Shown here: piece by piece, positions 1,679 to 56,096 of the stretch
Layout: each line of letters begins with the position of its first letter
Position numbering within the stretch: the first letter of the stretch is position 1
Origin: Nanobdellota archaeon
GTDB lineage: Archaea; Nanobdellota; Nanobdellia; Woesearchaeales; DATDXC01
DNA: 64,000 bases
Direction: 5' to 3'
Assembly: GCA_043818675.1 (NCBI GenBank)
Contig: JBDRFR010000069.1
Location: 14,877-78,876 of the forward strand
Notes under the pieces: model-generated
What the model was told of the DNA's origin: nothing
The model's input: the letters and a program-made list of their open reading frames with translations, nothing else
Database searches by the model: none
Made by a program: the position numbers and the translations under genes

Positions 1679-1808
1679 TATTATGTTAAGATAAAAGGTA
1701 CTATTTATAAATCTTTCGATTTTGTTACCACCTCATAATGATTACAAAATAGGACATTATCAGACAAACTAATCTAATTTAAATATGATAAATTAATTCC
1801 TGATTATA

Positions 1809-2700: not shown

Positions 2701-2881
2701 TAAAGAGATACAAGTGCTAAAGCTAAGAAAAAAAGGGTTAAAACAGATAGAGATAGCAAAAGCGCTGAATATTTCCCAGCCTGCTATATCATCTTTTGAA
2801 CAAAACATTGCCCGCAAGATAAGATCTTCAGTTGAGGTATTAGGATTAGTCAAAGAGCTGGGCATTGATATTGAAAAATGA
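2690..2881 (+). CDS. small Tfx/LuxR-type HTH DNA-binding protein (63 aa), tandem paralogue
   Basis: FTDKEIQVLKLRKKGLKQIEIAKALNISQPAISSFEQNIARKI. It overlaps the upstream paralogue by 11 nt, and its stop overlaps the next start (ATGA at 2878-2881). Confidence 0.7.
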   Translation: MFTDKEIQVLKLRKKGLKQIEIAKALNISQPAISSFEQNIARKIRSSVEVLGLVKELGIDIEK

Positions 2882-5133: not shown

Positions 5134-5200
5134 GGCAAATACATATAAATTACAATATACAACTTAGTATGTACATATATACAACTATAGGTGAGAGGAT

Positions 5201-7518: not shown

Positions 7519-10500
7519 TTGATTATGGCTGCTAGTTGGTTGAATAAAGCAGGGAAAAGTAAGGTTTTGGTAGCTTTAGCTTTGTTTTGCTTACTGTTAG
7601 GGATGTTTGGCGTAGGGTTATATAATGTAGGAGCCAGTCAAGACGAACTACTAATTGAAAGAGAGAACTTGATTAATGAGTTAGGGAATTATTCATATTT
7701 ACTAAACACATCACTTAAGATTGATCATATATTTGTTGAGAATTATTCTTGTTCTTCAGTTGGATATCATACTGTTAAGGTTTTGACAGAAGGAGTGCAT
7801 GATCAATTATTTAAGTTTGGTGATGTTAATGCGTCAGCGCATAATCTGGCAACGTATTCATCCAGTATAACCAATAACACGATAATATGGTATCATTTCA
7901 ATAATGATTCTTCTGTATATGAGAATTATGGAACTGAAGAGTTAACTGCAGAAGATAGTATGGTTTTATTATTCCACTTTAACAATGATTCTAGTGTTGG
8001 TGAGAATGATACGCATGTTTATGATTTTTCAGGGAATGGGAATAATGGAACTGTGACAGGTGCTGTTTATAATTCTAGTGGGAAGTTGAATGGAGCGTTT
8101 GAGTTTGATGGTGATGGGGATTATGTTGGAACAAATTTTAATACAGATATCCAGAACTTTACTGTTTCTGTTTGGGCTAAAAGTCTGTCTGCTCCAACAA
8201 CAGGGGGTGTATATACAGCGGTTCTAGGAAGGGAGGAGAATTTTATTATTTACTGGGATGCTACAAGTGGCACATTTGATGCTACTGTTGCTTATAGGAA
8301 TTCAGCGGTTGGATGGACAGCTTCTGATTTTGGTCCTGTAAGTGCGAATGTATGGTATCATATTGTTGGGACTTACAATGGAACTACTTTGATTACTTAT
8401 AGAGATGGTGTTGAAATAGACACTTCTACATTTGGAGTTCCTCAGAGTACTTCTGATATGTTAGCAATAGGGGATTCTAGGGTTGGAGCAGGAAATTATT
8501 TCAACGGCTCAATAGACGAAGTAGCAATCTGGAACAGAAGCTTATCCGCAGCAGAAATAAAAGGCATTTACATGAGAGGGCTACCTGCACATGTTTATGA
8601 TTACTCACAATATAATAATCATATAAAAGCCAACAAAACTGATCCGTTTGAGCCAACCTTTACAGCAGCAGGTAAATATAATGGAGCGTTGGAGTTCTCA
8701 AAAGATGATTATCTAATTAAGGACAATTTCACATTAGTCGGCGGAAACGGAACAATATCATTCTGGTTCAAGCTCAAAAATAATTATGATTCAGCCAAAG
8801 ATAAACATATGATACCTTGGGAATACAGGGAAGATGATACCCCAAATAAAATGGTCATCAGGTTTGACGCAGGGACTGGCCAGTTAAGGCTTATAACATA
8901 TCCAGGTTCAGATGTACTGACAGATTCAGATGCAACTTCTTGGACAGCAGGTGTCTGGCATCATGTTGCATGGGTACATAACACTACCCATACTGTGATG
9001 TATGTAGATAATGTGTTACAGTCTGATGTTGACACAGCAACAGTTTGGTGGAATGACTTTGCAACAGAAAATAGTACGCTGTATATTGGAGCCGAATATT
9101 ATAGTGGAAAAATACAAAGTTACTTCAACGGAACAATAGACGAATTTATGTTATTTAACAGAAGCTTATCAGCAGCTGAAATATCAGACCTTTATGGTGG
9201 AAAAGCAATAACAGGATTGACTATATGGGATGATTCTGATAACAAGAAAGTATACGCAAATTACACTAAATTCTATGCAGACTATAATGACTCAAGCGCT
9301 AAGACAGCCATATACGGCGGCGGAAGATGGTGCGAGTTTGCGTTTAATAAGACAAACCTAGACTGGAGCATATATACCTACATCAATATGACCTTTAACC
9401 CCAACACATTAAGATATGAATTGATAGCCGATGGCGGTTATTTCAATAACCAGACAGAAAAACACATAGATGGTATGCCAGCTGGACAGTATTATTATAA
9501 TATATCCTGCTATGATGAGACTGGAGTTTATCAGAATGTTTCAGTTGTTGATTTTGTTAATGTTTCTGAATATGATACAGGTTTAGGTATTACGACAAGT
9601 GTTACTGCGCCTGATGTTAACCAAAATGTTATTTTTTATGCAAACTATTCAAGAAATGATGTTTGGGATGTTGATAATTGGGTTTACGGTAATGAGATTG
9701 GGAGGGTTGTGTGGAATAGTAGTTCTATAGGTAATGAAAGATATTATGATGCTATCCCGGCAGTGTTTGTTGATTTTGACAACGATGGTAAAAAAGATGA
9801 ATTTGTTATCTCTGATGGTAACTCAGGGACAATATATCCTTTTTATTCAAACGGTTCACAAATGGAATGGACAAACACACAACAAGGATATGACTCTGCA
9901 GAAATATCTGTTGGAGATTTGGATAGGGATGGTTATGAAAATGAGATAGCAGTTGGAGATTGGCTGAGCGGAACAAGTGATGTGATAATAATTAATGAGA
10001 CAGGTGCAACAGTCTGGTCAGCTGTGAGTAATGGACAGCCAATATATGCTATTGAAATTGATGATTTAGAAAATGACGGATCTCCAGAAGTTGTATTCGC
10101 TAAGACTACAGTCTTAAGCGTCTATAATATGACTGGCTCAGAAATTTGGAATTATACTCTGCCAAATTATGCTTTGGAAATAAGAATGGCGGATGTTGTG
10201 GGGAATGAAAATAAAGAGATTATTGTAGCTACTGCTTATGGGGATAAATTGATGGTATTTAATTCCTCCGGTACTAATTTATGGAACTATACTAATGGAA
10301 ATGATCCGATTTCGATTGCATTCGCAGATATTGACCATGATGGTGTTGATAACATTATTACAGGGATGAGGACCGGAAACCAAGTATATGCAATGAATGG
10401 TTCAGGATCTATGCTTTGGGGAGGGAGTAGTCTTAGCGGAGTTGCCGGACAGATAAATGAGCTTGCCACTATGGATTTGGATGGGGATGGGTATGAAGAT

Positions 10501-25500: not shown

Positions 25501-28500
25501 GAAGTTATCCTGGGTAGTCTATATCAAATTATCCATGGTATAAATGGGTCTGGCGGACATCTGTGGAACATATCTGGCGGAAATCTCAGGCATTATGAAC
25601 TTAATGTTCTTGACCTGGATGATGACGGATTTGAAAATGATTTTGTTGTAGGTGATGCCAATGGAAATGTCACAGCATATAATGCTTCTCTGACAAACCA
25701 TGACATGATGTGGTCAATTGATCTAAACGGGGTAGGGGCTAATGATATCTATTCAGTTTCAAATGCAGATATAAATAATGATGGAATAAAAGAAATTCTA
25801 GTGGGTGGAGAAGATGCAATTTTATGGGTTTTAGATAAGTCAGACGGAAGTGTCCTGTGGGATTATACTGTCGGAACAGGAGACATTGGATCAGGGGCTG
25901 GAAAATCCAGAATAACAACCACAGATATAAACAATGATGGAATAAACGAGATTATTGTGGCATCACGAACAAACGCACAAATCCACACCTTCCAGGATGT
26001 AAACTGCATCATAGAAATCAGCGACGGAACATCAGCTGACATGAATTATAACTCAACCTCCAGAAAATGGGAATACAATAAAACATTCATTATTGCAGCT
26101 GACTACGAATATAATGTAACCTGCACAAAGGGAGGATATACTGAACAGGTACAAAGCTCTACTTTATCAGTTGCAAGCTTAAGGACATATCATCAGCCGT
26201 CAGCTGTTTATTCAAACTATACAAGGTTTGTCGCTAATTTCACTGAAGGCACTGGCAAATGCAGGATGAAATACAATAAGACAGGCATATGGAGCAGCTG
26301 GCATAACATGAGCTGGAATGGGACGATAAACGCGTTTGAGCTTGAAGCTGACAATGGGTATAGAAGAGGGCATATGCGCTCAATGCCGGCCGGAACTTAT
26401 GACTATTATATTGACTGCAATAACTCTTTAGGCCAGGCTGTAAATGCAACAGATTCGATAACTGTAAATGATTATGATACAAACCTATCAATATCAAACA
26501 CTAATAATAATCCAGTTATCGACCAACCTATCATTTTCTATGCTAACTATTCAAGAGTTGATCCATACAAAGTAGATAACTGGAAATTAGGAAATGAGAT
26601 TGGACAGGTTGTATGGAATACAAGTGATATTGGCACAAATGCAAATGCGATCGCAGCCATTGACCTGAACAATGATGGAAAGAAAAATGAGTTAATAATA
26701 GTAATGGACAGTGATATTACTGGCTTGTATGCAAATGGCAGTGAGAAGTTCAGCCAGACTTCTGGCATAGGTAATTCAATCTTAGATATAGCTGTTGGTG
26801 ATTTTGACAATGATGGTTATGAAAATGATTTTGCAATTGTAAGAGGCGCAAGCACCCTCGAGGTGTTTAATGAAACAGGCCAGGAAGTATGGGAAAGCGG
26901 CGATTACGGATCTACGCCTGCAATACCGGCTATAGGAGACTTTGATGGAGATGGCATCAAGAATGATTTCTTTATGATGGATGGCGGAAGTGTTTTTGTT
27001 TTTAACTCAACAGAAGGAAAGGTTTGGAGCGAGAGATGCAGCATTACGCATGGTGCCAACGTTTATGCTGGATATGATGCTATAACAACTAGAATTTATG
27101 ATTCATCTAAAGATGATATAGTTTTTGTTTCCAGTGAGAATAGTGCAACACCTGGCATTTGGGCGATTAATACATCATCTATTGGAACATGCAAACAATA
27201 TTATAATGGTTCAGGGAATTTATTTAGATCACTTGATGTTCTGGATATTGACCATGATGGAATTGAAAATGAATTTGTTGTAGGTGAAAATGGAGATGTA
27301 CTTGTATTTAATTTAAGCTTAGATATAATCCTTAGTGATTCTACACCTGATGATAATATTTGGGAGATCAGAAAAATTGACCTGGATAATGATGGATTTA
27401 AGGATGATTTTGTCGCTTCAGAAGATAATCCTCCAAGAATCAGGGCGTATGATAATAATTCTGATTTGAACTGGACATTTAATACTGGCGAATCTGCAGG
27501 AGTGTCTATCTTTTCGATGGAAATAGCTGATGTTAATAATGATGGAATAGAGGATATTTTATTTGGAACAAGCACTGGTATTGTTTATGCTGTTAATATT
27601 AGTGGAAACTTAATGTATAAATATGATATTCAATTAGGAACAATCGGAAATGACAACTCAAGAGCTTCATCAACAGACATCTCAGACATAAACAACGACG
27701 GAATAAATGATGTAGCAGTTGCATCCTTTGATGGCTACGCACACATCCTTCAGGATTCATCCTGCACTATAAAATTCACAGACGGATCATCATACAACAT
27801 GACCTGGAACATAAGTAAAGACAAATGGCAGGCAAACAAATCATTCAGATTAGCAGGGACATACAGCTACAATATTACATGTAATAAAGGCGGATACATA
27901 TCACAAAACCTAACTGCAAGCATTACAGCTGCAAAACAAGGTTCATTCTGCGATTGGGGAAGCTTAGCTACAACATGCCATATTAATACAAGCATAACTG
28001 TAAAGAATAACTACCAATTAAACGCATCCAACATAATAATCCATGAGCTTGGAAACCTATACAATAATTCAGGCATAAGCTTCATAATAAATCTAACCGG
28101 AAACCTAACAATAAAAAGCAGCGGAACAATCAATTTATCCGCAGCAAACTGCGCAAGCGGAACTTGCACAAACGGCGGAAACCTGACAATTATTGCATCC
28201 ACATTCAACCTAAGCAGGGGTTCATTTATTTATTCCAATGGCGGCTCTTTAACATCTGATGGAACCAAGGGTGGTAGTGGAGGAATAATAAATATCACAG
28301 CCAGATCATTCTATTTTGACGGAAATATAACATTAGATGGTGGAGATAATGCAGGAACATACAGTACTGGAGATGGAGGCATAGGTGGCACCATGGTTAT
28401 AGATGTTAATACCAACCTTAACATAGGTGGTAATCTGCTTGGAAAAGGCGGAACCGGAAGATCAAACATCTGCGCTGCAAATAGCGGCAGCAGGGGTAAT

Positions 28501-31500
28501 GGTGGTAAACTGATAATTAATGAAAACAATCTTAACCTGACAGTAAACGGAATTATTGACTTGCCTCCTGGAGAAAGAGGATATTGTGCAAATGGCACAT
28601 TTGGTGCAACTGACCTAAACATAAATACCTTAACTGTAAGCCAAAATGGGCAGCTTAAGATTGGAGGAACAATCAACTCATCAACTATAACCATAAGCGG
28701 TATTTTAGGACCAAAAGAAAGTTTGGGCGGAGACGGCAGGGTAAGCAGAAATAACGCTAGTGAACTGACAATCCTAAGCAATGTTTTAAATTTAACTTCA
28801 GGTGGAATAATTACAGGCAAAGGCCAAAGTGAAACAAACAACCTTGACTATTATTCAGGAACAGGTGCCACAATAAACATTTCAGTTGCAACCTTCTATT
28901 TTGATGGAAATATATCGATCGAAGGCGGAGAAGACTCAAGCGGAAATACTAACGGCGGAGGAGATGCAGGAATTTTGTATTTGGATGTGAATAGTAATTT
29001 GATTGTTAATGGAAACATTTTAGCAGATGGCGGAGTTGGAAGACCAAATGTCTGCGACAGTACAACTACAGGACATAGGGGGAGTGGTGGAACAGTCATC
29101 ATTAATGAGCCAAACCATAACATTAGTTTAGTAGGTCAGATTATTTCAAATAGGGGCACTACTGGACTTTGCGATGACGGCTCCGGCGGAACAATAAATA
29201 TCACAGCATCAGTATTAAACATAACAAACAACATTGAAGCAAAAGGAAACATCTCAGGAAATATTAACCTAAAAGCAGTCAGATTATACATTAACTCAAC
29301 ATTAAACGTAACCTCGGAAACAAATGACCAAAACGGAACAATAAGGATAACTTTCAAAGACAACTTCAACGCAACATATTCAAAGATTGAACCGGTTACA
29401 TACTTAGAAAGAAACACAACAGATGGAATGGTTTCTTTCTTACAATCATTTAACAGAAGATTAAACTCTACAATCCCGTATGAAAACGCAATAACTATAG
29501 CTTACAACAAAATAAACATTAACTCCACGAAATACAAAGACTTAAACAAGTCTGCCGATATAAAACTCTACAGCGCATTCGTCGGCGATATCAGGTTATT
29601 AAAAGACGGATTATTATGCACCTCCTGCAATCTAAAGGATTACTCGTTAGGCACTGCATACTTCAACGTAACATCGTTTACCAACTATTCGATAATCGGC
29701 AACACTACTTTAGTCTTATTTGATTCAGAGTATGATGTTCACCCGTTAAGCAATAACCCGATTATTTTCCAAAATGAAGTGGCCATATTCTACGCAAACT
29801 ATACAAGAAACAACGATAGTATTATTCTAACCGATGCAACTTGCGTTATTTACTTTAACGACACACAATCATGGACAGCTATGAGTTATAAGCCTGATAA
29901 ACAGTTGTTCTCGTATAACAGGACCTTTACAGCTGGCGGCAACTACACATGGAACACCAGCTGCGGCAGATCAGACTATTTAACCCAGTCAACAGAAGAT
30001 AACATATCAATCTCCGCTAACACCCCTCCTGTAATAAACTCTGTAAATATTACTATCAACAACAGTCTTTCAACTTTAGCCTATACTAACTCAACCTTAA
30101 ACTGCATGTTTAATATTACCGATATGGACGAAGGAGAACTTGTAAGAGCGAATATCACCTGGTTTCGGAATTTAGGTGATGGTTATATCCCCTGGACAAT
30201 GGACAACGAAGACGAGATTACCATAACACACAATATCTCGATGAACACAACATCAGGCGACATTGAGCCAGGCAAAACCAACCACAGCGACAGCTGGATC
30301 TGCCAGGTTACAGCATACGACTTATATAACGGCACCTCAATAACAAACTCCTCACCGTTGACAATCCAAAACTACAGCACTGTTTTAGTAATCTTTGACG
30401 AAGAAACAGACATTGAACAGCACAGGCGCTCAAACACAAGCACAATCTACAAGTTCCAGAACACCTCATTTTATGCTAATTACACCTTAAACCATCAGAT
30501 CATAAATCCTGCAATCTGCAGTATCTATTTCAACGATTCAGTAAGCATCAACATGACATACAAAGACACCCTATATTATTATAACAGAACTTTTACAAAA
30601 GGCGGCAATTTCACATTCAATATTACGTGTAAACGGTTCAATTACACAACAAAGACCAACTTTAGCTGGCTATGGATAACCTACAACTCATCACTAAGCA
30701 TCTTTGACCAGGAATCAGACGAAGAGACCAACCTATTAAGCAATAATGAGATCTACCAAAACGAAAACAGCTTTTTCTACGCAAATTATACAAGGGACGA
30801 TGATAACGCAACGATTACACAAGGCAATTGCACTATCTCTTTTGATGACAAAAAAGCCAACATGAGCTACAACACAAGTTTGCAGCTATTCACATACAAT
30901 AGGAGTTTTGCAGTCAGGGGCACTTATACTTGGTCAATAAATTGCACGACTAAAGGCTACGAGCAGGAGAACAAAACTTCCAGTATAACGGTTCTCTCTG
31001 CCGAGTTTGAGCATATTTATATTACACCCGAGATAGCATACAGCTCTGACAATCTGACTTGCATAAACACTACTGTAACGAATCAGGGCTCGGAAAATTA
31101 TACATTGGTCTATGAGTGGTTTAATGACGACGTTAGGATTGCAATTCTGGATTTAGCTTCCGATGGATCGGTAACACGTAACAACCAGGGCCAGGGAGCT
31201 GCATCTAATGCAATCGACAACAACCTGGCAACAGTTTGGCAGACAGACGAATTATCACTTGGCTGGATAAAGTTCACATTAGATAATACAAGAACCATCG
31301 GCAAATTAGACTATACGTTTAACGGTTCTGGCAATAGGGATAATTTCAACATATCATATTCAACTGACGATTCCACCTACATTACATTATACAGTTCACT
31401 GTCCGACCCAGGAAACGAGGTTACAATAACAAAAACCTTCGACCCTGTAAACATGAGGTATATCAGAATTGATTTCAGGAGCGGCTCGACCCAGGAATTT

Positions 31501-34500
31501 GGCGGATTGGCAGAATTCAATGTCTACCCGACAAACATACTATACAGCTCTTACACAACAAAAGGCGACAGTATCCATTGTACGATAACAGCCATGTTAG
31601 ACGATATTAATGCAACCACGTACACAACAAAATCCAGGTACAGGATTTTTACTAATCAAAGCGATTTCATAGGCGGAACATTAGTTAACACCTCTATTAC
31701 TCACCAGCCCGGCAATATCACGCTATACCCTAACTCAACAGGCAACTATTCAAACACAACAGGATACTACATTTCACCTTCCATTGATTTCCAAAGATTA
31801 TCACCCTCCATCTCGACGATAAGCTGGAACGGTTCAGATACAGGCATCAGTATCCAGACAAGGGTTTCAGCTGACAACAGCACCTGGTCAGAATGGCAAG
31901 GGCCGCAATTGACAAACAGCCCAAATATTTTGGCGCTTATGCATTTCAATGACGCTAACACCACAGTGAACAACGACCTGCCATTGTCAGGCAATTTCAG
32001 TTATAAACAGGCCAAATGGAACAATGGATTATTGATAAATCACACAAGCTATATTAGTTACAATACAAGCTTGTTGAACTATTCAACAGGCACGATCGCT
32101 TTCTGGCTAAAGCCTCTTGCCAATTTACAAGAAGGTTACCTGTTCGACACAGCATACAATGTAAGCATCAACCGAATCTCCTTATACCTTGAAAACTCTG
32201 TTTTATTCTTTAGGATCAGGGACAGTAATGACCGCGACCATATTGTTAACACTACGGTTGACTTCCAGGAAAATGTATGGCAGCATTTAGCAGTAACCTG
32301 GAACTTAACTAACATGTCAATTTACGTAAACAATACTTTGTTCACATCAAACATCAGGTCAAATGAGATCAAAAATGATAGTAACACTCTTCTTTTAGAA
32401 AGATTTGAAGCAGGATCAAAAATACAGAATAATGGCGGCATTTTACAGGGCAGCCTGGTTGATGGTAAATACAGTAATGGGTTTTTATCAGCAAATACAG
32501 GAGACGTTATCAATTATTCCACAACAAACCTTAACATCACAAAAGGCACTATTGAATTCTGGCTGAAACTTCAAAACTCTTTAGACTCAAAAACTTACTA
32601 TTTGTTTGACACTGCGTATAATGACAGTATTGACAGGTTATCAATCTATTTAGAAAATTCAAAACTTAATTTCCTGATAAGGGATAAAGATGACCGCGAC
32701 CATTTGATTAACGCAAGCGTTAATTTCCAGGATGACATTTGGTATTCAATAGCTGCTGCATGGAACCAAACTAATATGAGCTTATACATCAATAATAGTT
32801 ATCAGGCAGGTGATTATAGAAGCACTGAAGTAGCTAACGATTCTGATACCTTACTGATAGAAAGGTTTGAATCAATCAATAAGATAGACACTAACGGCGG
32901 CAGTTTTAAAGGCAGCCTTACCGATGGCAAACATGATAAAGGCTTCTTATCAGCTATAAGCGGAGACGTAATCAATTATTCCACAACAAACCTTAACATC
33001 ACAAAAGGCACTATTGAGTTCTGGCTAAAACTTCAAAACACCTTAGATTCAAAAACTTACTATTTATTTGATACTGCTTATAATGACAGTATTGAAAGGC
33101 TGTCAATCTACCTGGAAAACTCAAAACTTAATTTCCTGATAAGGGACAAGGACGACCGTGACCATTTGATCAACGTAAGTGCAGATTTCCAGGCAGGTGT
33201 TTGGTATTCAATAGCTGCTGCATGGAACCAGACAAACATGAGCTTATACATAAATAACAGCTATCAGGCAGGCGATTATAAAAGTACTGAGATAAAAAAT
33301 GACACAAGCACATTGCTCTTAGAAAGGTTTGAATCAATAGCTAAAATAACAGCTAATAACGGTTATGTTTCAAGCGGCGTAAATCTCACCCAGGGCAGGC
33401 ACAGTAAAGGAATGATCACCGACAGACCAGGCGAATTTGTAAATTATTCTAGTGATTATTTCAACCGCACCAAAGGCACTATCGAATTCTGGATTAAACC
33501 TGTTTGGCCAGGAACTGCTGATAAAACTGATTATTTCTTTGACCAGGGCAGCGGTTCACAAGCAAACAGGATGTTTATTTCAAAAGGCAGTGATCCGGCA
33601 AGCGAATTAAGCATATCAAACTCAAGCATAGTATTTGCCATTTTTGACGGTGCAGGAACATCTCATTATGTAAGTTCTGATATTAGTTCATGGCAATCTT
33701 CGGAATGGCACTCAGTTGCAGCAGTTTACAATTTCACTGGATCATCTTCCTACATGGCTTTATATGTTGACAACGTTTTGCAGGACAACACCCCGACAAA
33801 TCCAGGCGCCTTCACACTCAGCGCAAAATCCATTTTATACATTGGTTCAAACAGGCTAAAGGATCATTATTCAAATGCCACAATTGACTCTTTAAGGATT
33901 TCAAACAACCCAAGGTCAAACTTCAGCTATATTTACGCTGACGATACTATTCCGATTAGTAATAAAGCAGCCTTACAGCATATTGGCAATAGTTATAATT
34001 TAAGTTATCCAGCTAATGCAACAATTGACTCCTTTAGAATATCAAACATACAAAGAACAGGCTTTAGCTATATCTACGCAGATACAATACCATTGCTTAA
34101 CAAAGCAGCCTTATTGCATATTGGCAATAGTTACAATCTAAGTTATCCAGCTAATGCAACTATTGACTCTTTAAGGATATCAAACACACAAAGAACAGAC
34201 TTTAGCTATATTTACCCAGGTGACACACTTCCGATGTCTTCCAAAGCAAAAGAGTTTTTCATAGGCACAAACTACACAAAACACCAGCAGATAAACTCCA
34301 CTATTGATGAGTTTGTAATATACAACAGTATTCAAGATATAGGCGACATTTATCAGACATCGCATACAGCTTTCCAGGGCACTGTTCCCACGCCGCACCT
34401 TAGGTTTTTACAGTACAAGATTAACTTCCAAACAAACTTCACTAACCAAACACCAATCCTTGAAAAGCTGACTATTCAGCAGGATGATTTCCCTATCATT

Positions 34501-37500
34501 ATCAAAAACAAGGCTCCGACAGCCCCTTCCTTATTAACCCCTGCTGATAATAATTGGCTTACGACAGCCACACCTCTGCTAAACTGGACAGAAAGTATCG
34601 ACGTTGACAACGATATTGTTTATTATAATTTATTGATTGACGATGATAGTGATTTCTTAACACCCTATATTGAAAAGGCCAATCCCGGCTTTAATTTAAC
34701 TGACAGTAATTATACAATTAACAGCTCAGAAGCACTCGAGCAATCAACCTATTATTGGAAAGTTAGGGCATTTGATTTGGACAACGCTGATCAGCCCGGC
34801 GAATCAAACGCATCGTCGTTTTCCCAGACTTTCACACTAAGCGTTGATTCTGTTTATCCTAAGATATTCAATGAATCCAAAAGTCCTGATGGCTTTATCT
34901 ATGAGATTTACAACGTAACATTTTTCGTTAACGTATCAGAGTCAAACATTTTGAACGTGACATTAGAAGCTAACTGGTCAAGTGCAATGGTTAATTATAC
35001 AGTCAATAATTATACTGGCACAGGTTCTAACAGGAGGTATAATTATACTGTAAGTAGCACAGAGCTTAGTGCACTTGAGCTTGTCATGTGGCGGTTCTAT
35101 GTAACAGACTCTTCCGGCTCGGTCAATAGAACCCCTCAGCATAACTTCACTGTCCAGCCGGCTGTTGATCTGAACTTATCAGGCATAACACCGCCTGATA
35201 TTATCTATTCCAATCTGACCAGGTTTAATGTTACAATTTTTAACCAAGGCGACGGTGCCGCATCGAATATTAATGTAAGCTGCTATGTTAATGATACGTT
35301 CATTGACAGTTACATTATATCAACAATTGACGGCTTATCCCAAAACAGTTCATATTGCAGCTATACAGCTGTTTTTGGCACAAGTTTCATTCTCGATGCA
35401 ACTGTTGACCCAGCTAACACTATCCCTGAATCAAACGAACTTAATAATGATGGCAACATATCATTTAGTGTCCTGCAAAAAACAGGCATGTCTGCTTATG
35501 ACCAGGAAGACGACGATGAAGATAACGCAGGATGGTTATCTGAGCACGAGACTGCCCCGCTGCAGATGACCTACTACTTTGTAAATTATACAAGCGATCT
35601 GGACAACTCTGCCATTTCTGACGGCATTTGCACAATCTACCTGAACAATTCCGCGATACAGATGACTTATAATTCCAGCGCAGGGTTATATTATTACAAC
35701 CGTTCCTGGGCATTTGCCGGAAGCAACGACTGGAACATAACCTGCAAAAAACCCTTGTATGAAAACAAGACCTATATTTCAGAGACCTATGTCAGGATCT
35801 TATTAAGAAACGCATCAGCTATCGGTTTAACTACACTAACAAGGCACCTAAACCCAGCCGATCCTGTTAATATAACAGTTACTGTCCCAAATCAGAACAT
35901 TCTCTTAAACCTTAGCAGTGTCTGGACAGAGATCATAAAGCCTGACGGGTATAAAGAAAACCTATCGATGAGTGGCGAGCCTTCTGGTGGAATTTACAAT
36001 TTAACATTCAGGAACACTTCCCTGGTCGGAACATACACTGCTAAGTTCTTTGCCAATTTAACTGACGGGTTCAAAGGTGTTGAAACAGCTCGGACTAATT
36101 TCTCTGTTGAAAATATAAGTATGCCGATCTATCTGAACAAATCCAGGATTAATGTTAGCGAACATGTAAAGATATACGGAAAAGCAAGAAGATTTAACAA
36201 CAGCAACTATTTCAATATAACAGGCACAAACCTGTCAATCTGGCAGGATGGTATATTTAACGCAACTGTTATAACTAATTCCACTGCTGATTTTAATAAG
36301 ACAATCATATTTAAGATAGCAGGCACAAGGACTATCAAAGTTAACATTACATCAGCTGAAGGCATATACGGCAATAACCAAACTTCATTAATTGTCAATA
36401 TTCCCCTGCGAAACATTTCAGCAAGAGGTATTACAACAAACACCCGATATGTTAATTATAATGAGACTGTAAATTTATCTATCACTATTCCCACTGAAAA
36501 CATTGGCTCTGCAGATCTTAGCAGTGTTTGGGCAGAAATTACAAAACCCGATTCAAGAAAAGTCAACATAAGCTTATCAGGATCTAGTCAAGGTGGTGTT
36601 TGGAATACCACATTTACTAATAATACATTGCTTGGTACATATACTGTCAGGTATTATGCAAACTTATCAGACGGATTCCGGTACGTAGAACAGGCTATAA
36701 CAAACTATTCGGTGGAGAATATCTCGTTATCGATATATCTTAACAAATCCGTAATCAACAACACTGAAACTATAAAAGTTTACGGAAAAGCCAGACGGCA
36801 CAACGGTTCCAGCTACTTCAATATAACCGGAACAACAATATATATTTGGCAGGATAATGTTTCAAACGGTTCCATAATTACGAATACATCTGGAGATTAT
36901 AACACCACAATTTCCTCATATGTTGCAGGCATAAGGCACCTAAAAGTCAATATTACAACACAAGAAGGATTATACAGTTACAATCTAACAACTTTAAATA
37001 TTAGCATACCGCTTCGTAATAAACAGGCATTAGGTCTTACTACTGATACTAACATGATCCATTACGATGAAGAAGTCAACATCTCAATCAATATACCCTT
37101 GGAATACATAGGAAACGATGAATTAGATAGTATCTGGGCAGAAATTACAAAACCTGACTCCAGAAAAATTAACATAAGCTTTTCAGGATTGAGCACTGGC
37201 GGTATTTGGAACGCATCATTTGATAACACCACGGTTTTAGGCAGATATACTATAAGATATTATGCTAATTTATCGAGTGGTTTTTCTATAACTGAAACAT
37301 CGATTACAAATTTCACCGCAGCTAACATTTCTATTTCGCTTGTGCTAAGCAGGTCAATCCTAAACACAACAAACAACTTAACAGTCAGTGGTAAAGCAAT
37401 AATCTTCAATGGGTCAGTGGCTCAAAATGTAACAGACAGAAACGTTACAGTATTTTTGGGAGGTATACTAGTATCTAACGCAACAACTGACTCTTATGGC

Positions 37501-40500
37501 AATTATAATACAACTTTTTCAGTGCCTACGACAAACCTGGGTGCTGTAATTATAAAAGTTAACATCACTTCAGCTGACAACCTCTATGCATCAAACCAGT
37601 CCGCAGTCACTTTATGGGCTGAAACCATTTTAAATTACACAGCGTCTGCTGATTATTCTGGCACTGTAACAAACTTCACTGTTACAGCCAATTTTGTGCG
37701 TACAGATACAAACACATCTGTCCCCGGAACCTTCAATATTACTATACACAATAACAGCCTAAGATATTACAGGGACTGTAACGGAACTTTATGTATTAAT
37801 TCATTCCTTGTGCCTGGCAGCGTTATCTGGGGTAATTACAGCTTTAATATAACAGCGACTAACATATCTGGTTATTATCATAATGCTTCTGTAAATTTTA
37901 CAGCAATGTTAGAATATAAGAGCACCACTGCTTCGGTCCTTAACTCTAAAAACAAGACTATCATTGATTTTGCAACAGGTTCAACTTATGTATACTATCA
38001 TAACATTACAATTGTCAATTTAGGCAATGCAACAATGAACAATGCTTACGCTCTTGCTGACTTATCCGATCTGGATTTTGATTCTATTGTTAACACCTCA
38101 AGCTGCGGCAATATTCCCCCTAAAAGCAGCTGCAACCAGTCGTTTGCCTTAACTCTTAATTCAAACTCCGAACCTGACGTAAAACTTATCATTTGGAGGG
38201 TAAACCACACCAATAACGACGGCTCGTACTCAAAATCTTCAAATTCTGTCAGGATGACCACCACAATTGTTGGCGCAGTCATAATGGACACATCCACTGG
38301 TTTGATTGACCAGGACATAGAACATGGCCAGTCAGTTAGTTCAGGTTTTGCAATTCAAAGTAATGGTAATCTGGTCCTAAGCAGTGTTGCTGTAGAGCTT
38401 ATAAACGACACTATGCCAAGCTCTTGGTTTAGCTTCACCGGTTCTACGAGTTTTGGCACGATCCCGGCAGGCCAGACAGGCACGGTTACATACTCAATTA
38501 CTATCCCAGAACATTACGCTCCTGGCACATATAATGCAACCATAAACGTAACTGCATCAAACCATAATGAAACATACATTAAGGTCAACATTACCGTTCC
38601 TCTAAATGGCACATGGATTATCAGCGGGGATATCGGTAAGACCACAAATTTCACCCAGAATCTTAATGGCACTGTTGGCAATCTTACGCTCAGCAATCTG
38701 GGCAATATTGAGATGAATTTCAGCATATCCTACTTGCCTGGCGGAAGCAGGCTATACACTGATTTTGGCAGTGATTTATTCCAGGAAAACCAAGCTGGGT
38801 ACAATCCCACCTGGCTGAATATACCAAAAAATACAAGCAGGAATCTCAGCATTTTCCAGAAAAGCTGGTCAAGCAGCTTATCAGATGTTGGCATTAACAT
38901 TTCCATCATTAATTTAAGCGGCACCCCTACAAACAGGAGCATCTATATGGTGTTTAATATTAAAGATGATCCACCTGTTGTTGAAGCCATGTTTTACCTT
39001 GTAAACAATTCCGTCCAGAATTACACTGAATTTAACAAGTCTATTACCATAAAAGCAACTGTAACTGACGACATTGATATTGAACATACCACAAGCAACT
39101 CATATTTCAATGTTAGCTACTATGGAGATTATACAGTTATCAACGCTTCATTTACCGAGTACAGGTACGATAGCGGTTATAAGGAGATAAATTTCACAGC
39201 TAACTTCACACCCACAACGATAGGAGCCCACAATGTCACATTAACTGTCAAAGACAGCGCTTCCCAGATTACAAGATATTCAGGCTACAATTTCACCTCA
39301 ATCGGCAACACTTCCGTCAATATTACATTTAATCTATCAGTCGCCCAAATAACCCAAATAACCCAAAGATTAAGCAAGAATATTACAGTTAATATCACAA
39401 TCAAAAATACTGGATTTGTAAAAGCATATTATAACAATTTAACATGGATTTTACCTTCGGGGTGGTCGATTTATCCAACATTTGACTATTTATCAAGCAT
39501 ATCTTCCGGTGCATCAAAATCAAAGCTTTTCAACTTATCAATCCCTATAGCTACCAGTCCAGGATTATATACAATAACGGCAATCACTAACTGGACAAAT
39601 CCGATAAAAACAAGAAATAGCACTACTGAAACCTTCAGGATAAATGTAACATCCAATAAAATCCTGAATTTAACCATTAACAATAAGACAATAACAATAA
39701 ATCATAGCTCTCAGCGGTCGTATGTGTTTGGTGTGAATGCTACAGGAAATGATAATTTGACCAATGTAAATATAAGTTGTATATCCGGTGAGGTATGCAA
39801 TTTCACAATATCCTATAATAATTCCTTATTTAACGTTAGTGCTGGTTCAGTTATTTATGTAAACACTACAATTACTGTCCCGGAATATCAGGCTCCGGCC
39901 AACTACACCGGAATCTTCAATGTTTCCACAAACAGCTCAAACTCAAAGACTATAAATTTAACAGTGGAAGTGCCTGCTGACGAAACATGGAATATTAGCA
40001 TAGCCACTATTTCAAAAAGTGTCGGCGCTTTAAACTCAGGTATTGTCAGCAAATTCAACATAACAAACAATGGCAACATTATGATAGGTTTCAAGCTTAA
40101 CACCACGAACAACACTATTATTAGTCTTAACGCAACCAGTATAACCGTCCAAAAAAACAGTACAAGTGAAGTATTGATAAGTTACAGCTCACCACAACAG
40201 GCAGCTGATTATATAATCGTTATTATGATCACTAATAATTCTCTGTCGCAAAGGCAGCGCAATTTAACAATTAATCTAACTGTACTTCAGTTCCAGGTAA
40301 ACATAACTTATCCATTAAATATATCTCCGTTAACTAACATTACAGCAAACCAAAACATAACAATAAACGCCACAGCCTATTATATCAATGAAAGCTTGTC
40401 TGAAAATGTGACATGGGCTGTTAAATTTAATGATAGTGTATGCAATGTTTACAATTATACGTACATTAACAGCGTATGGCAGGTCAGGTGCACAACCCCT

Positions 40501-43500
40501 GACATAGACGACGGCAAATACTATTATCTTAAGCTCACTGCTAATTATACAACCTTAAACAATGCATTGACTGACACTGAACCCAACGCTATTTTATACC
40601 GTGACGTCACCGCTCCAACCATCATTTCAAAGAATAAGAAGAACATTGCGCCAGGTAGTGACGTGAACCTAACATTAAACATTACTGACAATGTTAATGT
40701 TTCAACTGTCATTGCTCAGCTGACCTATCCAAATATCACAGGCAATATATCCACCATAATTAATTATACAGCCTCCTATACAAACGGATTATATATTATC
40801 AGCTTATATGATTTGGTCCATATAGGCGATTATGATATTACATACTATATTAATGATACAACAGGCAATTCCCTAACCGACACAGACAATTTCGAGGTTT
40901 ATTTGATAAAACCCAGATTTTCCGGAACCATATCTGACTATCAGGGTAATGGTGTGCCATCTTTTTGGGAATTTTATAGGTCAAACACCTCTACCCTTCT
41001 CACGAATATAACGACTAACTCAACAGGAAGATACAATAGCGGAGATATTCATAACCGGACTTATGACCTTAGAATTAGCGCTCTTGGCCATAAAATAATC
41101 ATTAAAAATCTGAACTTCACAACAATTAAAAATGACGCAATAGACCTTGATTTGATTATTGGCACTGACATTGACACAATTATTACTAACTACAGGCCGT
41201 TAAAAGGTATCGGTGTTAATACAACCTTTAATGTAAGCTATGTCAACTTCACGATTAATTATAGCGGCACAAGTCCTGTATCAGAAACAGGCATAAAGAT
41301 TTTTAGATGTTCAAACTGGTCTTATAAGGTCAGAATTTGCGATAACACCTGGACAGAATTAAACAGCACTGTTTATGTTAGCAGGGATATAGTAATCGCT
41401 TCTTCTTCAGGATTTTCTGCATATATAGCTGCCGAGCTAAAATGCGGCAACGGCATATGCGAAGAGATATACGGTGAAACTTCAGCAAACTGCGCAGCTG
41501 ACTGCATAACAGCCCAGGGTCCAGCTTCAATTTCTGTTAGCAGCGGTGGTGGCGGTGGTGGCGGTGGCGGAGGCAGCGGACTGTCAAAAGAAGACTTAAG
41601 AGCTGAATTAGAAGCATTAAACTTGCTAAACATTACTGATAAGATTGAAGATATTGTCAAAGCCACAAAAAAACTGGCAGGTGTAGAAATGGCGACCACC
41701 TCGATATATAAGGAGCTTTTCCCAAAAGAAGACGCCTCAGCAAGGATTAGGATGCGAAACACTCTCGATACCAACATCAGATTAAACACCAAAGTTGAAG
41801 GCGCTGTAAAAGATTTTGTATTCTTTGAAAATTATGCAGTAACTCTTTCAGGCGGTGAAGAAAAAGACATTATAGTAAGAATAACCATCCCGCAGTTTAC
41901 AAAACCTGGATCATACGATGGTGACATTATTTTAATGCGTGACAATGAAGAGGTCAGGATCCCGACGACCATTAGAGTTTTACAGGAAGAAGGAAAACTT
42001 TTAGACGTCAAAATCCAGCCGTTAGTAGACTCAATCTCGCCTGGCGAAACTCTGCTTCTTCGAACAGACTTGATAAACCTTGGTAAGACTAAACGTGTGG
42101 ATGTCCAGTTTAAGCTGCAATTAACCGACCCCAGGACAGGTGAAATACTAAAAGAAACAGAAGAGGCATTTGCAATCGAGACATCACTAACAACAACAAA
42201 AGAACTTGAGATTCCAAAAGAGATCAAATTAGGCAAATATTTAGTTCAGGGCACTGCATATTATAGCAGTCTTGAAGACCGTAATCAGGAAGCAGTATCT
42301 ATTGCAACCATAAACATCCAGCAGCCATTTTTAGAAAGGGAATTTTTAGGCATTAAGAATGAAAGTTATATGTTCGGATTTATTATAGCTTTAGCATTGA
42401 TTGCACTGTTTATTTTCTACACATATAAGCAGAAAAAGAAGAAACGGTACATTAAGGTAATAGATCTTAAAACTTTGCCAAAACCCGGAAAGAATTCTGG
42501 ATTTATCGGTAAGATAGCAGAAACAGGCATTAGGACTTTCATTGACATTAACAAGCTTCAGACACATACACTTATAGCTGGCGCAACAGGCAGCGGTAAA
42601 ACAATAGCTATCCAGGACATTATCGAAGAGTCTCTTTTAAAAGGCATCAGTGTGATAGTCTTTGATCCTACTGCTCAATGGACCGGCTTTTTAAGAAAGT
42701 GTAAACAGCCGTCTATGTTAAAACGCTACAGTTATTTTGACATGAAGCCAAAAGACGCAAAAGCTTTCAAAGGCAACATCAGGACCATTACAAATCCGCG
42801 TGAGATTATTGAAATTAAGCAATTCATGGCTTCAGGTGAGATCACAATCTTTAACACAAGCAATCTCGAGCCAAAAGAGATGGACATTGTAGTAGCATCG
42901 ACTGTCCAGCAAATATTCAAGGCAAACCTAGAGGAAAGCCCTGACCTAAAAACTCTGATAGTCTATGACGAAGTTCACCGGCTGCTTCCAAAATTCGGCG
43001 GCAGCGGCAAAGGCTTTATACAGGTTGAAAGAGGCGTTAGAGAATTCAGGAAATGGGGTGTTGGCATTGTATTGATAAGCCAGGTGCTCAGCGACTTCAT
43101 CGGTGAGATCAAAGCTAATATAGGCACAGAGATCCAGTTAAGGACCCGTTACGAAAACGATCTCGAAAGGATCAGCATGAAATACGGTGAAGATATTCAA
43201 AAATCTATTGTAAAGGCCGCTGTAGGAACAGGTATGATCGTCAATGCTGAATATAACCATGGCCGCCCATATTTCGTCAGTTTCCGGCCAATACTTCATT
43301 CAATAACAAAAATAAATGACAAAGACCTTGCTAGTTATACACAATACGCAAAACGCACAGAGGATATTACTTACCAGCTTGAACAATTAAAACTTTTAAA
43401 TGTTGACATATTTGATTTAGAATTAGAGCTGAAGTTGTCCGATAGTAAAATTCGTTCCGGCCAGTTTGAAATGGTCGAGATTTACCTAAAATCTCTTGAG

Positions 43501-56085: not shown

Positions 56086-56096
56086 TAGAAGATTAA

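Follow-up and report, generated by a model that had tools for sequence, protein, structure and literature searches.

A large part of archaeal diversity belongs to the DPANN archaea, which are host-dependent, and SPEARE-type giants are leading candidates for the molecules of their cell-cell contact. These proteins were described in 2019 from Nanohaloarchaeota (Ca. Nanohaloarchaeum antarcticus NAR1_1133, 5,998 aa; Ca. Nanopetramus SG9, 8,553 aa), with their architecture, their expression (81 peptides) and a proposed role in host contact (PMC6642349). In proteomics of the type protein, the ectodomain was recovered in other size fractions than the TM segment with its tail (PMC6642349), so that the protein may come apart into two halves after synthesis. 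The SPEARE tail was reinterpreted as an ATPase in PMC10266531, where SVXNc_0300 (9,409 aa) and BNXNv_0298 (8,880 aa) of cultivated nanohaloarchaea were proposed to bind the host and to energise transfer. In 2021, a 12,127-aa SPEARE with TM helices at both ends, the KA27 SPEARE, was reported from a DPANN EX4484-52 MAG of a mud volcano; it accounts for ~3.4% of a ~1.1-Mb genome and was read as a symbiosis marker (PMC8470020).

The window analysed here, which is the whole 64-kb stretch of DNA, contains a giant gene on its forward strand (7519..43815; 12,098 codons from TTG 7519 to the stop TAA at 43813-43815). The initial annotation had described a single 36,297-nt ORF covering 57% of the window and starting at ATG 7525 behind a Shine-Dalgarno sequence, and this description held. 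Translation of 7519-43815 contained one stop, the terminal one; a stop-free run of 12,098 codons has a chance probability of ~1e-395 at this base composition, and the 36-kb ORF was confirmed as genuine in the present sequence. Its share of the window is 56.7%. ATG 7525, which lies 6 nt past GAGG 7515-7518, is a more plausible start than TTG 7519 and gives a protein of 12,096 aa, with a predicted mass of 1.34 MDa and a pI of 4.5. No 100% match to this protein was found in the protein collection, and the window contained no tRNA gene and no Rfam match. The source contig belongs to a metagenome assembly. The aRF1 gene of the window was 100% identical to NCBI MFH1642040.1 ('Nanoarchaeota archaeon'), followed by matches at 75-85% identity whose named members include Woesearchaeota. 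These matches support a small-celled DPANN-type source, in line with the small-genome archaeon that had been suspected.

Comparison with the defining features of SPEAREs (Hamm et al. 2019) indicated that the giant is probably a SPEARE-family surface protein of a Woesearchaeota-type DPANN archaeon, an explanation that would include host binding and an ATPase ring. A homologous intracellular C-terminal region was identified by BLASTP against the type SPEARE C-terminus: giant aa 11,527-11,997 aligned at 44% identity over 478 columns (E 2e-121), with the type sequence machine-read from the PMC6642349 supplement, so that a few of its residues may be wrong. The ResIII and DUF87 Pfam matches of the giant agree with those reported for SPEAREs. 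The ectodomain contains laminin-G together with other adhesion domains (LamG, FG-GAP, F5/8-C, CARDB and NPCBM_assoc, all above Pfam cut-offs), and on predicted topology the protein is mostly extracytoplasmic, with a TM segment near the C-terminus and a cytoplasmic C-terminal region. Occurrence in DPANN is indicated by the aRF1 match and by all 80 related loci, which lie in DPANN-type MAGs; one MAG, carrying the relative locus L079, is listed in Table S3 of Hamm et al. The protease and endonuclease families included in the same definition were matched in no Pfam tile of the giant. Such domains were argued to be absent from the type SPEAREs too (PMC10266531), and they are therefore probably no true defining feature.

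The giant shares the plan of the Nanohaloarchaeota SPEAREs (PMC6642349), that is, a laminin-G ectodomain, one TM segment near the C-terminus, and a cytoplasmic 'ResIII'/DUF87 P-loop domain with a coiled coil. As in the present window, those genomes hold several size versions, including ones of ~700 aa. The giant differs in belonging to a non-halophilic, Woesearchaeota-type Nanoarchaeota lineage, in having ~2x the length of the type protein and in combining seven FG-GAP propellers with 11 LamG domains; the serine-protease and BC-toxin-like regions claimed for SPEAREs were not detected in it. With SVXNc_0300 and BNXNv_0298 it shares a putative Sec signal peptide, beta-propellers on the N-terminal side, a long Ig-like array, a TM segment, a cytosolic ATPase ('VirB4/TraG-like' in PMC10266531) and a terminal coiled coil. 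In those two proteins most of the length is an array of ~75 tandem Ig domains, and a second VirB4/TraG ATPase (PF03135) is encoded behind them, whereas the giant precedes a coiled-coil gene. The KA27 SPEARE is near-equal in length and also has hydrophobic segments at both ends. The two were set apart by length and tail matches: the giant is not the KA27 SPEARE because its ORF cannot exceed 12,100 codons and because, among species-representative genomes, its tail finds no match better than 65%. The giant is a large further example and not a new type, because it belongs to an already described family. The unusual topology and size claimed in the initial annotation had precedents in the SPEAREs of 2019 and the KA27 protein of 2021, and that claim was dropped. 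The giant extends the family to about 12,100 aa (1.34 MDa) in a non-halophilic Woesearchaeota-type lineage. New beyond the initial annotation are a downstream partner gene (d1), a conserved core of ~2,150 aa, a small paralogous locus and an internal codon-usage step; these leave the classification unchanged, since the architecture, its spread across DPANN and a protein equal in size were already in print. The comparative points (defining unit, partner gene, core and variable distal region) are concrete experimental targets.

The C-terminal tail had been taken as a simple anchor. Instead, it carries an ATPase of the HerA/FtsK class, which defines the family and is highly conserved in it, with a coiled coil behind. 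The predicted cytoplasmic P-loop ATPase of the HerA/FtsK superfamily (42496..43284) was assigned from Pfam, fold and invariant residues, with Walker A AGATGSGKT at 42577-42603 and Walker B LIVYDEVH at 42955-42978. A helical, coiled-coil extension with a Lys/Glu-rich end completes the protein (43318..43812, aa 11,934-12,098). Pfam matches above cut-off were DUF87, HerA_C, ResIII (3.7e-8) and TrwB. An AlphaFold model of the tail (pLDDT 86.8) matched HerA (4d2i, E 6e-11) as the best PDB fold, then FtsK (2ius, E 3e-8), TcpA (E 7e-8), VirB4 and EccC, and a profile search against PDB sequences also returned HerA (2.7e-9). Across 37 homologues GxTGxGK, DE and several Arg were invariant, and all family-invariant residues are kept in the giant. 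GTDB species genomes contain at least 549 DPANN loci with the ATPase module, attached to ectodomains of ~240 to >6,000 aa, and 371 representatives at E <= 1e-30; the ATPase was C-terminal in every case. The relatives group by length at ~780 aa, at ~1,300 aa and from 2,400 to >6,000 aa. Judged from these comparisons, the defining unit of SPEARE-type proteins is the TM segment with the predicted HerA/FtsK-class ATPase and the coiled coil.

The tail was compared with individual families of this superfamily, and the NCBIfam models for CedD, VirB4, TraD and HerA all scored far below their cut-offs. HerA models gave 27-29 bits against cut-offs of 800-970, and no NurA gene was found in the window; the fold is still closest to HerA despite these scores. 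The N-terminal HAS barrel of HerA is absent, because the ATPase domain begins directly after the TM segment. VirB4/TraC models were equally distant (TIGR00929, 17.8 vs 643; TraC, 25 vs 567), with no PF03135 match and no T4SS genes in the window. The type IV coupling protein family PF10412 was matched at 26.4 bits (cut-off 20.5) over only 46 residues around Walker A, and TraD models gave 22-26 bits vs 366-521; the topology is analogous, and neither a relaxase nor a T4SS was found. FtsK/SpoIIIE membership was not indicated by PF01580, whose match scored 25.3 bits (cut-off 24) and covered just 40 residues, in a protein with a single TM segment and no gamma domain. The PADLOC HerA model for anti-phage systems scored ~60 bits, a superfamily-level match, with no Sir2 or DUF4297 effector found. 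As in the membrane-anchored translocases (TrwB/TraD/TcpA, FtsK/SpoIIIE, EccC/EssC and the archaeal Ced ATPases), a TM anchor is followed by a cytoplasmic RecA-like ATPase. The giant differs from them in its one TM helix (vs 2-5) and in an ectodomain placed N-terminal to it, and it carries no HerA barrel, FtsK gamma domain, T4CP all-alpha domain or VirB4 N-domain.

Domains were called by Pfam tiling of the protein, propeller clusters by FG-GAP/FG-GAP_3 matches with a Ca-motif scan, and supermodules were mapped from DNA repeat families and Pfam positions. The tiling matched Laminin_G_3, FG-GAP, F5_F8_type_C and CARDB, with DUF87 in the tail. It identified 11 Laminin_G_3 stretches and, together with the Ca-motif scan, seven FG-GAP propellers, as the initial annotation had proposed, and it recovered the discoidin-like domain, the CARDB domain and the many Ig-like modules (NPCBM_assoc, DUF4625, Gmad2, MG2 and CarboxypepD_reg). 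Part A of the ectodomain (7636..27618, aa ~40-6,700; GC3 0.285) is made of diverged repeats of a supermodule of LamG, linker and FG-GAP propeller. Its seven LamG domains lie at 8110-8562, 8746-9186, 14326-14805, 16882-17364, 20044-20529, 21085-21510 and 23713-24198, and its seven propeller clusters at 9772-10503, 11710-12327, 15646-16290, 18064-18672, 22330-23103, 24892-25641 and 26662-27408. Part B (27619..42369, aa ~6,700-11,617; GC3 ~0.40) shows a shifted codon usage and contains a Gly/Asn-rich repetitive segment (27931..30159, aa 6,805-7,547), F5_F8_type_C (31183-31515, aa 7,889-7,999), four LamG domains (32044-32391, 32623-32919, 33448-33918 and a fourth within aa ~8,500-9,000), CARDB (35167-35448, aa 9,217-9,310) and Ig-like NPCBM_assoc modules (38320-38553, 39385-39585 and 42037-42264). 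The Gly/Asn-rich segment is probably a beta-solenoid. Its structure model (pLDDT 65, moderate confidence) is all-beta and periodic, and its PDB fold matches, weak and non-significant, are nearly all beta-helical adhesins; no Pfam match was found in aa ~6,805-7,547. The beta-helix-like segment of the initial annotation is thus plausible, though weakly supported. The only substantial homologue of this segment is P0380, a stand-alone 1,189-aa Woesearchaeota protein.

Many giant-class relatives could be aligned contiguously, at 33-42% identity, with a core of ~2,150 aa (37351..43812, aa ~9,945-12,098), which comprises an Ig-like membrane-proximal stalk, the TM segment, the ATPase and the coiled coil. 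The stalk common to these relatives is the proximal ~1,650 aa of the ectodomain. The distal ectodomain, with its LamG/propeller supermodules, solenoid-like stretch, discoidin domain and four LamG domains, is lineage-specific and freely variable.

The gene for d1, a coiled-coil-rich protein of 353 aa that matched no Pfam family, follows the giant on the same strand (43858..44919), and its position is conserved: in 56-60 of 80 distinct relative loci, the ATPase-bearing gene is followed immediately by a d1 homologue. Upstream, a 751-aa N-anchored surface protein (2878..5133, + strand) is possibly a further partner, because its relatives sit upstream of SPEARE-type genes in other genomes. The N-terminal ~136 aa of this protein are 48.5% identical to the PKD/TM protein of a second, small locus on the opposite strand. 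There, a SPEARE-type paralogue of 774 aa (56097..58421, - strand; NCBI MFH1642052.1) has a predicted signal peptide (VAA|Q), a ~240-aa ectodomain, a TM segment, KKKRY and an ATPase that is 52% identical to the giant tail over 421 aa, with an overall plan alike. Its start is overlapped by the gene for a 1,342-aa PKD-domain surface protein with a C-proximal TM segment and a coiled-coil cytoplasmic tail (58418..62446, - strand). The PKD/TM family is conserved in 28 loci, where it precedes SPEARE-type genes of small or middle size. The second ATPase, of VirB4 type, that is reported downstream in nanohaloarchaea was not found here, and neither VirB4 (PF03135) nor other type IV secretion genes were present in the window or in most loci of the relatives.

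A Kyte-Doolittle scan of the whole giant returned two hydrophobic segments, at the positions first proposed. The N-terminal one, VLVALALFCLLLGMFGVGL (7564..7620, aa 16-34), is preceded by a basic n-region (K10, K13, K15) and followed by a candidate signal-peptidase site, VGA|S (7627-7638). The second, TM2 (42370..42426, aa 11,618-11,636), is followed by KQKKKKRY at 42427-42450, exactly as annotated, and by LPKPG (42475-42489), a conserved juxtamembrane motif of the tail. A cytoplasmic C-terminus and an external ectodomain are strongly supported as a prediction, because a +7 charge cluster lies past TM2, the pI is 9.4 in the tail vs 4.4 in the acidic ectodomain, and N-glycosylation sequons are enriched in the ectodomain (579 in aa 41-11,613, z = +27.9) but not in the tail (2, z 0.2). 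With the domain content, this topology supports the annotated view of a giant, overwhelmingly extracellular lectin/propeller/Ig surface protein.

Codon usage changes within the gene: around 27.6-29.5 kb GC3 rises from 0.285 to 0.40, and C-ending codons increase from 0.26 in part A to 0.47 in part B. The change-point had an LLR of 85-160 (<=7.2 in shuffles) and an interval of 28,915-29,566, within the Gly/Asn-rich segment. Part A resembles the rest of the window, and the genes past the giant return to native usage. Among 22 relatives no such step was seen. A generally raised GC3 in giant genes was rejected as its cause, the giants of these relatives tracking their neighbours. The sharp step suggests a mosaic origin: the giant appears to combine a 5' 20 kb of native usage with a foreign-looking 3' 14-16 kb that includes the ATPase.

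Two alternatives concern the structure of the protein and of its gene. The N-terminal segment is predicted to act as a Sec signal peptide or else as a signal anchor. The initial annotation had placed both termini in the cytoplasm; the C-terminal half of this claim stood, and the N-terminal tether is one option beside cleavage at the VGA|S site. We regard an uncleaved segment, which would tether the 11,580-aa ectodomain loop twice, as a real, though not the favoured, possibility. The 19-residue stretch is long enough to span a membrane, the KA27 SPEARE is described with TM helices at both ends (PMC8470020), and 4/215 relatives and L020 are true N-anchored members, since a conserved ~50-aa cytoplasmic mini-domain (KYIKRG..GPYYYESYR) precedes their first TM segment. 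However, this mini-domain is missing from the giant and the entire window, and a search of all six frames in and upstream of the gene for a lost N-terminus carrying it found none. The n-region of the giant is short, and its hydrophobic stretch ends Gly-rich and helix-breaking before V-G-A|S, at a position homologous to the canonical ...LVSA|LTFEEEL site of the relative L021. Textbook cleavable signal peptides occur in most relatives and in the in-window paralogue (VAA|Q), and the 9,409-aa SVXNc_0300 was predicted to lose its Sec signal peptide by cleavage (PMC10266531). That the ORF is partly an assembly artefact, two giant genes of different strains or organisms joined near 27.6-29.5 kb, seems to us distinctly improbable. 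Giant repetitive genes are known assembly hazards; the codon step has no parallel in relatives, and the propeller-to-solenoid junction was found in none of them. Exact-sequence look-up of d1, aRF1, P0260 and P0076 returned no record of an independent assembly. Yet a second join would be required at ~43.8 kb, because the genes downstream regain native usage, and a chimera with one join would have a 3' flank out of keeping with its own giant. The change-point falls inside a block (giant aa 6,805-7,547) to which P0380, a single protein from another genome, is collinear, the frame is maintained across the region, and both flanks carry paralogous genes (the N-domains of the 751-aa and 1,342-aa proteins). 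The initial annotation had warned of repeat mis-assembly; the longest exact internal repeat is 98 nt and sited elsewhere, leaving no long one that could have seeded a false join, and the best long repeat is 90% identical over 300 nt, so that the risk of collapse is low and collapse was rejected as an artefact source. An evolutionary mosaic formed by horizontal transfer or recombination accounts for the same data.

Under the preferred reading as a SPEARE-family contact protein, a Sec-type N-terminal signal is predicted to send ~11,580 residues outside the cell, and the single TM helix to join the Ig-like stalk to a cytoplasmic ATPase ending in a coiled coil. Lectin and propeller arrays may bind glycans or S-layer glycoproteins of the host cell. 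By analogy with all characterised members of the superfamily, the ATPase tails may form a ring, probably a hexamer, which would bundle several ectodomains; working with the coiled-coil partner at the contact site, such a ring could then spend ATP on moving a polymer, either DNA or protein, or on mechanical work. With a single TM helix in each subunit, a hexamer would offer a thin basis for a channel. Characterised superfamily members (HerA, FtsK, VirB4, T4CP and EccC) are polymer translocases, and ATPases of the TrwB/TraD/TcpA, FtsK/SpoIIIE and EccC/EssC types form hexameric rings that pump DNA or protein. This speaks against the ATPase being a motor for export, assembly or quality control of its own ectodomain, or a module for signalling or clustering, in a protein that functions simply as an adhesin. 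We consider such a role unlikely: members with ~240-aa ectodomains conserve the ATPase equally well, so the motor is not adapted to giant cargo, and the Sec pathway is normally enough for type I membrane proteins. It is favoured by the lack of other conserved secretion-system components nearby and by the sole conserved cytoplasmic partner being a coiled-coil protein, which suggests a scaffold over a channel. Very improbable, in our view, is a HerA-type anti-virus defence ATPase (Sir2-HerA/DUF4297-HerA) or a helicase of a restriction enzyme, the role first suggested for SPEARE. PADLOC HerA/mad8 models (~60 bits), ResIII (3.7e-8) and bacterial defence HerA structures among the best fold matches point that way, but the matches are at superfamily level only, the tail has no HerA N-terminal barrel, and no Sir2, DUF4297 or nuclease partner was found in the window. 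We know of no counterpart among defence HerA systems to a fusion with a giant glycosylated ectodomain. No endonuclease domain was found here, nor on re-analysis in PMC10266531.

The initial annotation's candidate role in attachment to a host or partner cell agrees with the literature proposal for the SPEARE family (PMC6642349). A bolder proposal, to which we give little weight, is that the SPEARE-type protein might be the core of a DPANN-specific trans-envelope apparatus, together with d1 and often the PKD/TM partner. Its ATPase ring would bundle glycosylated stalks into a fibre or conduit to the host for ATP-driven import or export of DNA or protein, as an analogue of coupling-protein/FtsK translocases evolved independently of type IV secretion, and variable distal lectin cassettes, whose horizontal exchange the codon mosaic suggests, would set the host range. 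Giant, secreted or surface-bound, lectin-rich proteins are also represented by halomucin (Haloquadratum walsbyi, ~9,000 aa) and the huge archaeal Laminin_G_3 proteins (PMC11573180). A C-terminal TM segment with an ATPase module is not reported for halomucin-type proteins, and halomucin is thought to serve as a protective coat rather than in host contact. Among archaeal proteins >5,000 aa, Laminin_G_3 occurs more often than any other domain (PMC11573180).

Listing of the open reading frames placed a single frame at 7519-43815 on the plus strand, made of 12,098 codons, and its translation contained a single stop codon, at the terminus. Since stop codons account for about 7% of random triplets at the base composition of the window, the probability of 12,098 stop-free codons arising by chance is about 1e-395. 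These results bear out the uninterrupted 36-kb ORF proposed in the initial annotation. The listed start is TTG 7519, which abuts a GAGG; ATG 7525, six bases past this GAGG, is the likelier start. A minus-strand ORF of 176 aa within the gene (28311-28841) is most likely a shadow ORF.

Direct sequence alignment assigned the product of this ORF (hereafter the giant) to SPEARE, a family of giant, putative host-contact surface proteins in DPANN archaea. This assignment follows from two observations: residues 11,527-11,997 aligned with the last 475 residues of the type SPEARE sequence (44% identity, E 2e-121; PMC6642349 supplement), and the MAG bearing the related locus L079 is listed in Table S3 of the same paper (PMC6642349). 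The family was defined in Nanohaloarchaeota from very long proteins (5,998 and 8,553 aa), alongside which shorter versions (655-717 aa) occur (Hamm et al. 2019; PMC6642349). [quoted passage not shown] The type SPEARE is expressed, and because its ectodomain and its TM and tail were recovered in different size fractions, it may be processed after synthesis (PMC6642349). In 2023, the intracellular region was reinterpreted as a VirB4/TraG-like ATPase, after which comes a coiled coil, and SPEAREs of 9,409 and 8,880 aa with a Sec signal peptide were described (PMC10266531). A 12,127-aa SPEARE 'with transmembrane helices at both ends', reported in 2021 from the DPANN EX4484-52 MAG KA27 (PMC8470020), provides a precedent for both the size and the two-segment layout of the giant, which can no longer be called unusual. 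The ORF, the domains and the giant adhesin-type surface protein described in the initial annotation all stood, whereas the novelty attached to them did not, as size, topology and adhesin nature were already in the literature. We consider the giant to be a newly found member of the family, very large and non-halophilic, with an architecture that has precedents.

The tail, made up of the 460 residues past the second TM, had been read as a plain cytoplasmic anchor. This reading was incomplete, since the tail carries an ATPase with Walker A (AGATGSGKT) and Walker B (LIVYDEVH) motifs and matched five Pfam families above cut-offs: DUF87 (the HerA central domain), HerA_C, ResIII, TrwB_AAD_bind and FtsK_SpoIIIE. 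A confident AlphaFold model built with 37 homologues (pLDDT 86.8) consists of a RecA-like core and, after it, long helices spanning about 165 residues. Foldseek ranked Sulfolobus HerA first (E 6e-11), then bacterial HerA, the FtsK motor, the TcpA coupling protein, VirB4 and EccC, and a profile search of PDB sequences with the tail agreed. NCBI curated models all scored far under threshold against the tail (CedD 33/600, HerA 29/800, TraD 26/366, VirB4 18/643), and PADLOC returned HerA matches at superfamily level only and no effector partner. Because of these low scores and superfamily-level matches, the tail is placed as a distinct family inside the HerA-FtsK superfamily.

A Kyte-Doolittle scan of the giant revealed exactly two hydrophobic segments, at aa 16-34 (nt 7564-7620, plus strand) and at aa 11,618-11,636 (nt 42370-42426, plus strand), the second TM being followed by KQKKKKRY as originally described. 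A +7 charge cluster lies directly after this TM, and the pI of the tail is 9.4 versus 4.4 for the ectodomain. N-x-S/T sequons between the two segments numbered 579 (5.0 per 100 aa; z = +27.9 against composition-matched shuffles), as compared with 2 in the tail (z = 0.2, same shuffles). The predicted cytoplasmic location of the C-terminus, also put forward earlier, is well supported by these three properties.

The N-terminal segment is ambiguous and could be a cleaved signal peptide or an anchor. The initial annotation had favoured an uncleaved anchor, which would leave the ectodomain tethered at both ends as a closed loop. This arrangement would be in keeping with the 19-residue length of the hydrophobic stretch, with the helices at both ends of the KA27 protein (PMC8470020) and with a few relatives in which a conserved cytoplasmic mini-domain of about 50 aa precedes the first TM. 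However, the giant does not have this mini-domain, its n-region is short, and the hydrophobic stretch runs into Gly-rich residues and then V-G-A|S; moreover, canonical signal peptides are found in most relatives, and the first ectodomain of the giant has its homologue in L021, a related locus, after a textbook signal peptide. We thus regard tethering at both ends as possible but somewhat doubtful. The mini-domain was identified in the related proteins P0124, P0125, P0127 and P0128 and at locus L020 as a conserved motif of about 50 aa, MVYKKYIKRGxKxYGPYYYESYR...YIG, ahead of the first TM. It is predicted to be a small cytoplasmic N-terminal domain, so that these five proteins would be truly anchored at both ends.

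Pfam searches with the giant tiled in two registers closely matched the domain content read from the sequence by eye. The ectodomain contains 11 Laminin_G_3 stretches, FG-GAP/FG-GAP_3 repeats in seven propeller clusters of Ca-binding motifs (Pfam and a Ca-motif scan), a discoidin-like F5/8 type C domain (aa 7,889-7,999), a CARDB domain (aa 9,217-9,310) and numerous Ig-like modules (NPCBM_assoc, DUF4625, Gmad2, MG2, CarboxypepD_reg). Residues ~40-6,700 are made of diverged LamG and propeller supermodules. The part that begins at residue ~6,700 opens with a Gly-rich, solenoid-like segment, and the two-register tiling gave no Pfam match at aa ~6,700-7,880. An AlphaFold model of aa 6,805-7,404, made from a two-sequence alignment (pLDDT 65, pTM 0.71), was all-beta and periodic. 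It had no significant fold match in the PDB, and its weak top matches were nearly all beta-helical adhesins (VacA p55, Ag43, EtpA). The beta-helix-like segment proposed earlier is thus consistent with the model and with these weak matches, but not backed by Pfam or by a significant PDB match. The sole real homologue of the solenoid-like segment was P0380, a stand-alone 1,189-aa Woesearchaeota protein encoded next to FG-GAP and Beta_helix genes. Alignment with long relatives delimited a contiguous conserved core at aa ~9,945-12,098 (33-42% identity), comprising an Ig-like stalk, the TM, the ATPase and the coiled coil; all regions distal to it are lineage-specific. Positions 1-11638 of L002, a locus on a 55.7-kb contig from JGI 3300076002, are collinear with aa 9,943-12,054 of the giant and were called as four ORFs in frames 2, 3, 1 and 2 (3,037 + 187 + 332 + 545 aa), reflecting either a decaying SPEARE gene or sequencing frameshifts.

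Codon usage changes along the gene. GC3 is about 0.285 from the start to ~28.7 kb, similar to every other gene of the window (0.22-0.34); beyond that point it climbs to 0.42-0.50 and remains within 0.33-0.50 (mostly >0.36) through the ATPase. Across the step as a whole (27,600-29,600), GC3 increases from 0.285 to 0.40, and the share of C-ending codons, 0.26 before it, is 0.47 after it. Likelihood analysis placed the GC3 change-point at nt 29,503 (support interval 28,915-29,566; LLR 85 versus at most 7.2 in shuffles) and that of C- versus T-ending codons at nt 27,643 (LLR 160), where the seventh propeller ends and the solenoid starts. The GC3 of giants tracks neighbouring genes in 22 relatives, indicating that the step is not a family trait. 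The genome of L003, which has the closest relative of the tail (65% identity), is higher in GC3. Most simply, the gene would be an evolutionary mosaic, a native LamG/propeller array whose 3' 14-16 kb came in, or were exchanged, through recombination. Such a step could also result from an assembly chimera. A chimera would, however, require two joins, and a single homologous block shared with P0380 spans the GC3 change-point, so we consider it very unlikely. Repeats in the DNA of the gene are old and have diverged (best pair 90% over 300 nt, most 60-80%), and exact identity extends over 98 nt at most, which makes repeat collapse or a false join through repeats unlikely.

Searches with the TM and tail module identified 689 proteins; those with a name are called DUF87 or ATP-binding proteins and come from Woese-, Pace-, Nano-, Aenigm- and Altiarchaeota. 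Conservation of the module is strong: 75 columns are invariant, among them the juxtamembrane KKKRY...LPKPG...GKIAE stretch. An exhaustive HMMER search of 1.84 billion representatives gave 371 matches at E <= 1e-30, with the ATPase always C-terminal and lengths up to 6,253 aa among the top 150. A scan of species-representative genomes detected at least 549 loci, the best 80 of which (82 locus identifiers, two duplicating the same contig) all came from DPANN-type MAGs. ORF walking resolved these 80 into three size classes: ~780 aa, ~1,300 aa and giants. Among the giants, those with bounded ORFs measured 2,458-3,671 aa, and in many others the frame had not closed where the 10-kb flank ended. Four loci (L048, L049, L058, L059) contain tandem SPEARE-type pairs, with a ~700-840-aa member beside a 1,350-1,700-aa one, which points to repeated local duplication.

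Directly downstream of the giant gene lies d1 (43858-44919, plus strand), which encodes an unannotated, coiled-coil-rich protein of 353 aa with no Pfam family. In 56-60 of the 80 distinct loci of relatives, nanohaloarchaeal ones included, a d1 homologue comes directly after the gene with the ATPase, and we found no mention of this conserved partner in the SPEARE papers cited here. The next ORF (44886-45770; 294 aa, coiled coil) has no homologue in the relative loci. A second VirB4/TraG ATPase downstream, as in nanohaloarchaeal giants, is absent from the window and from nearly all loci, which weakens a literal 'type IV secretion' reading.

Characterised HerA/FtsK-superfamily ATPases form rings, and for this reason the tail may assemble into one. 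The lectin and propeller arrays would bind host glycans, and ATP hydrolysis, together with the coiled-coil partner, could move DNA or protein or perform mechanical work at the contact site; the evidence is equally compatible with either substrate (DNA or protein) and either direction (import or export). What SPEAREs do matters for DPANN biology, and useful leads come from the conserved partner, the conserved core and the mosaic structure. MFH1642040.1 and MFH1642052.1, both from 'MAG: Nanoarchaeota archaeon', are 100% identical to the aRF1 encoded in the window and to the 774-aa paralogue, respectively; the next aRF1 matches are 75-85% identical, those named being mostly from Woesearchaeota. 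The episymbiont-type archaeon first suggested is a fair inference.

The paralogue belongs to a second, small SPEARE-type locus (51786-62446, minus strand), which also encodes a 1,342-aa PKD/TM/coiled-coil protein (58418-62446, minus strand), a 210-aa weak-HTH protein and four secreted proteins of ~246 aa. In the paralogue itself (56097-58421, minus strand), a signal peptide with VAA|Q and an ectodomain of 240 aa precede a TM, KKKRY and an ATPase that shares 52% identity with that of the giant. The PKD/TM/coiled-coil family lies upstream of small and mid-size members in 28 loci, and the gene order of the small locus is repeated in L081, L037 and L080. The four tandem ~246-aa paralogues are mutually 66-84% identical and hold the longest exact repeat of the window (101 nt at 53982/54770).

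Upstream of the giant, an N-anchored protein of 751 aa (2878-5133, plus strand) shares 48.5% identity over its N-terminal ~136 aa with the N-terminus of the 1,342-aa PKD protein. It may be the upstream partner of the giant, displaced by a toxin-antitoxin pair; in L034, L048 and L058, relatives of it precede SPEARE-type genes. The pair at 5201-6303 (plus strand), HEPN (167 aa) and nucleotidyltransferase (200 aa) with a 4-nt overlap, is a typical MNT-HEPN module, and its nucleotidyltransferase matches the PADLOC candidate PDC-M05A (3.8e-10). The 310-aa ORF directly upstream of the giant (6293-7225, plus strand) shows weak, below-threshold similarity to the N-terminal zinc-binding domain of IS1/IS1595 transposases and may be a mobile-element remnant beside the mosaic gene. 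At the left end of the window, a minus-strand ORF of at least 561 aa (1-~1,690) continues beyond the edge.
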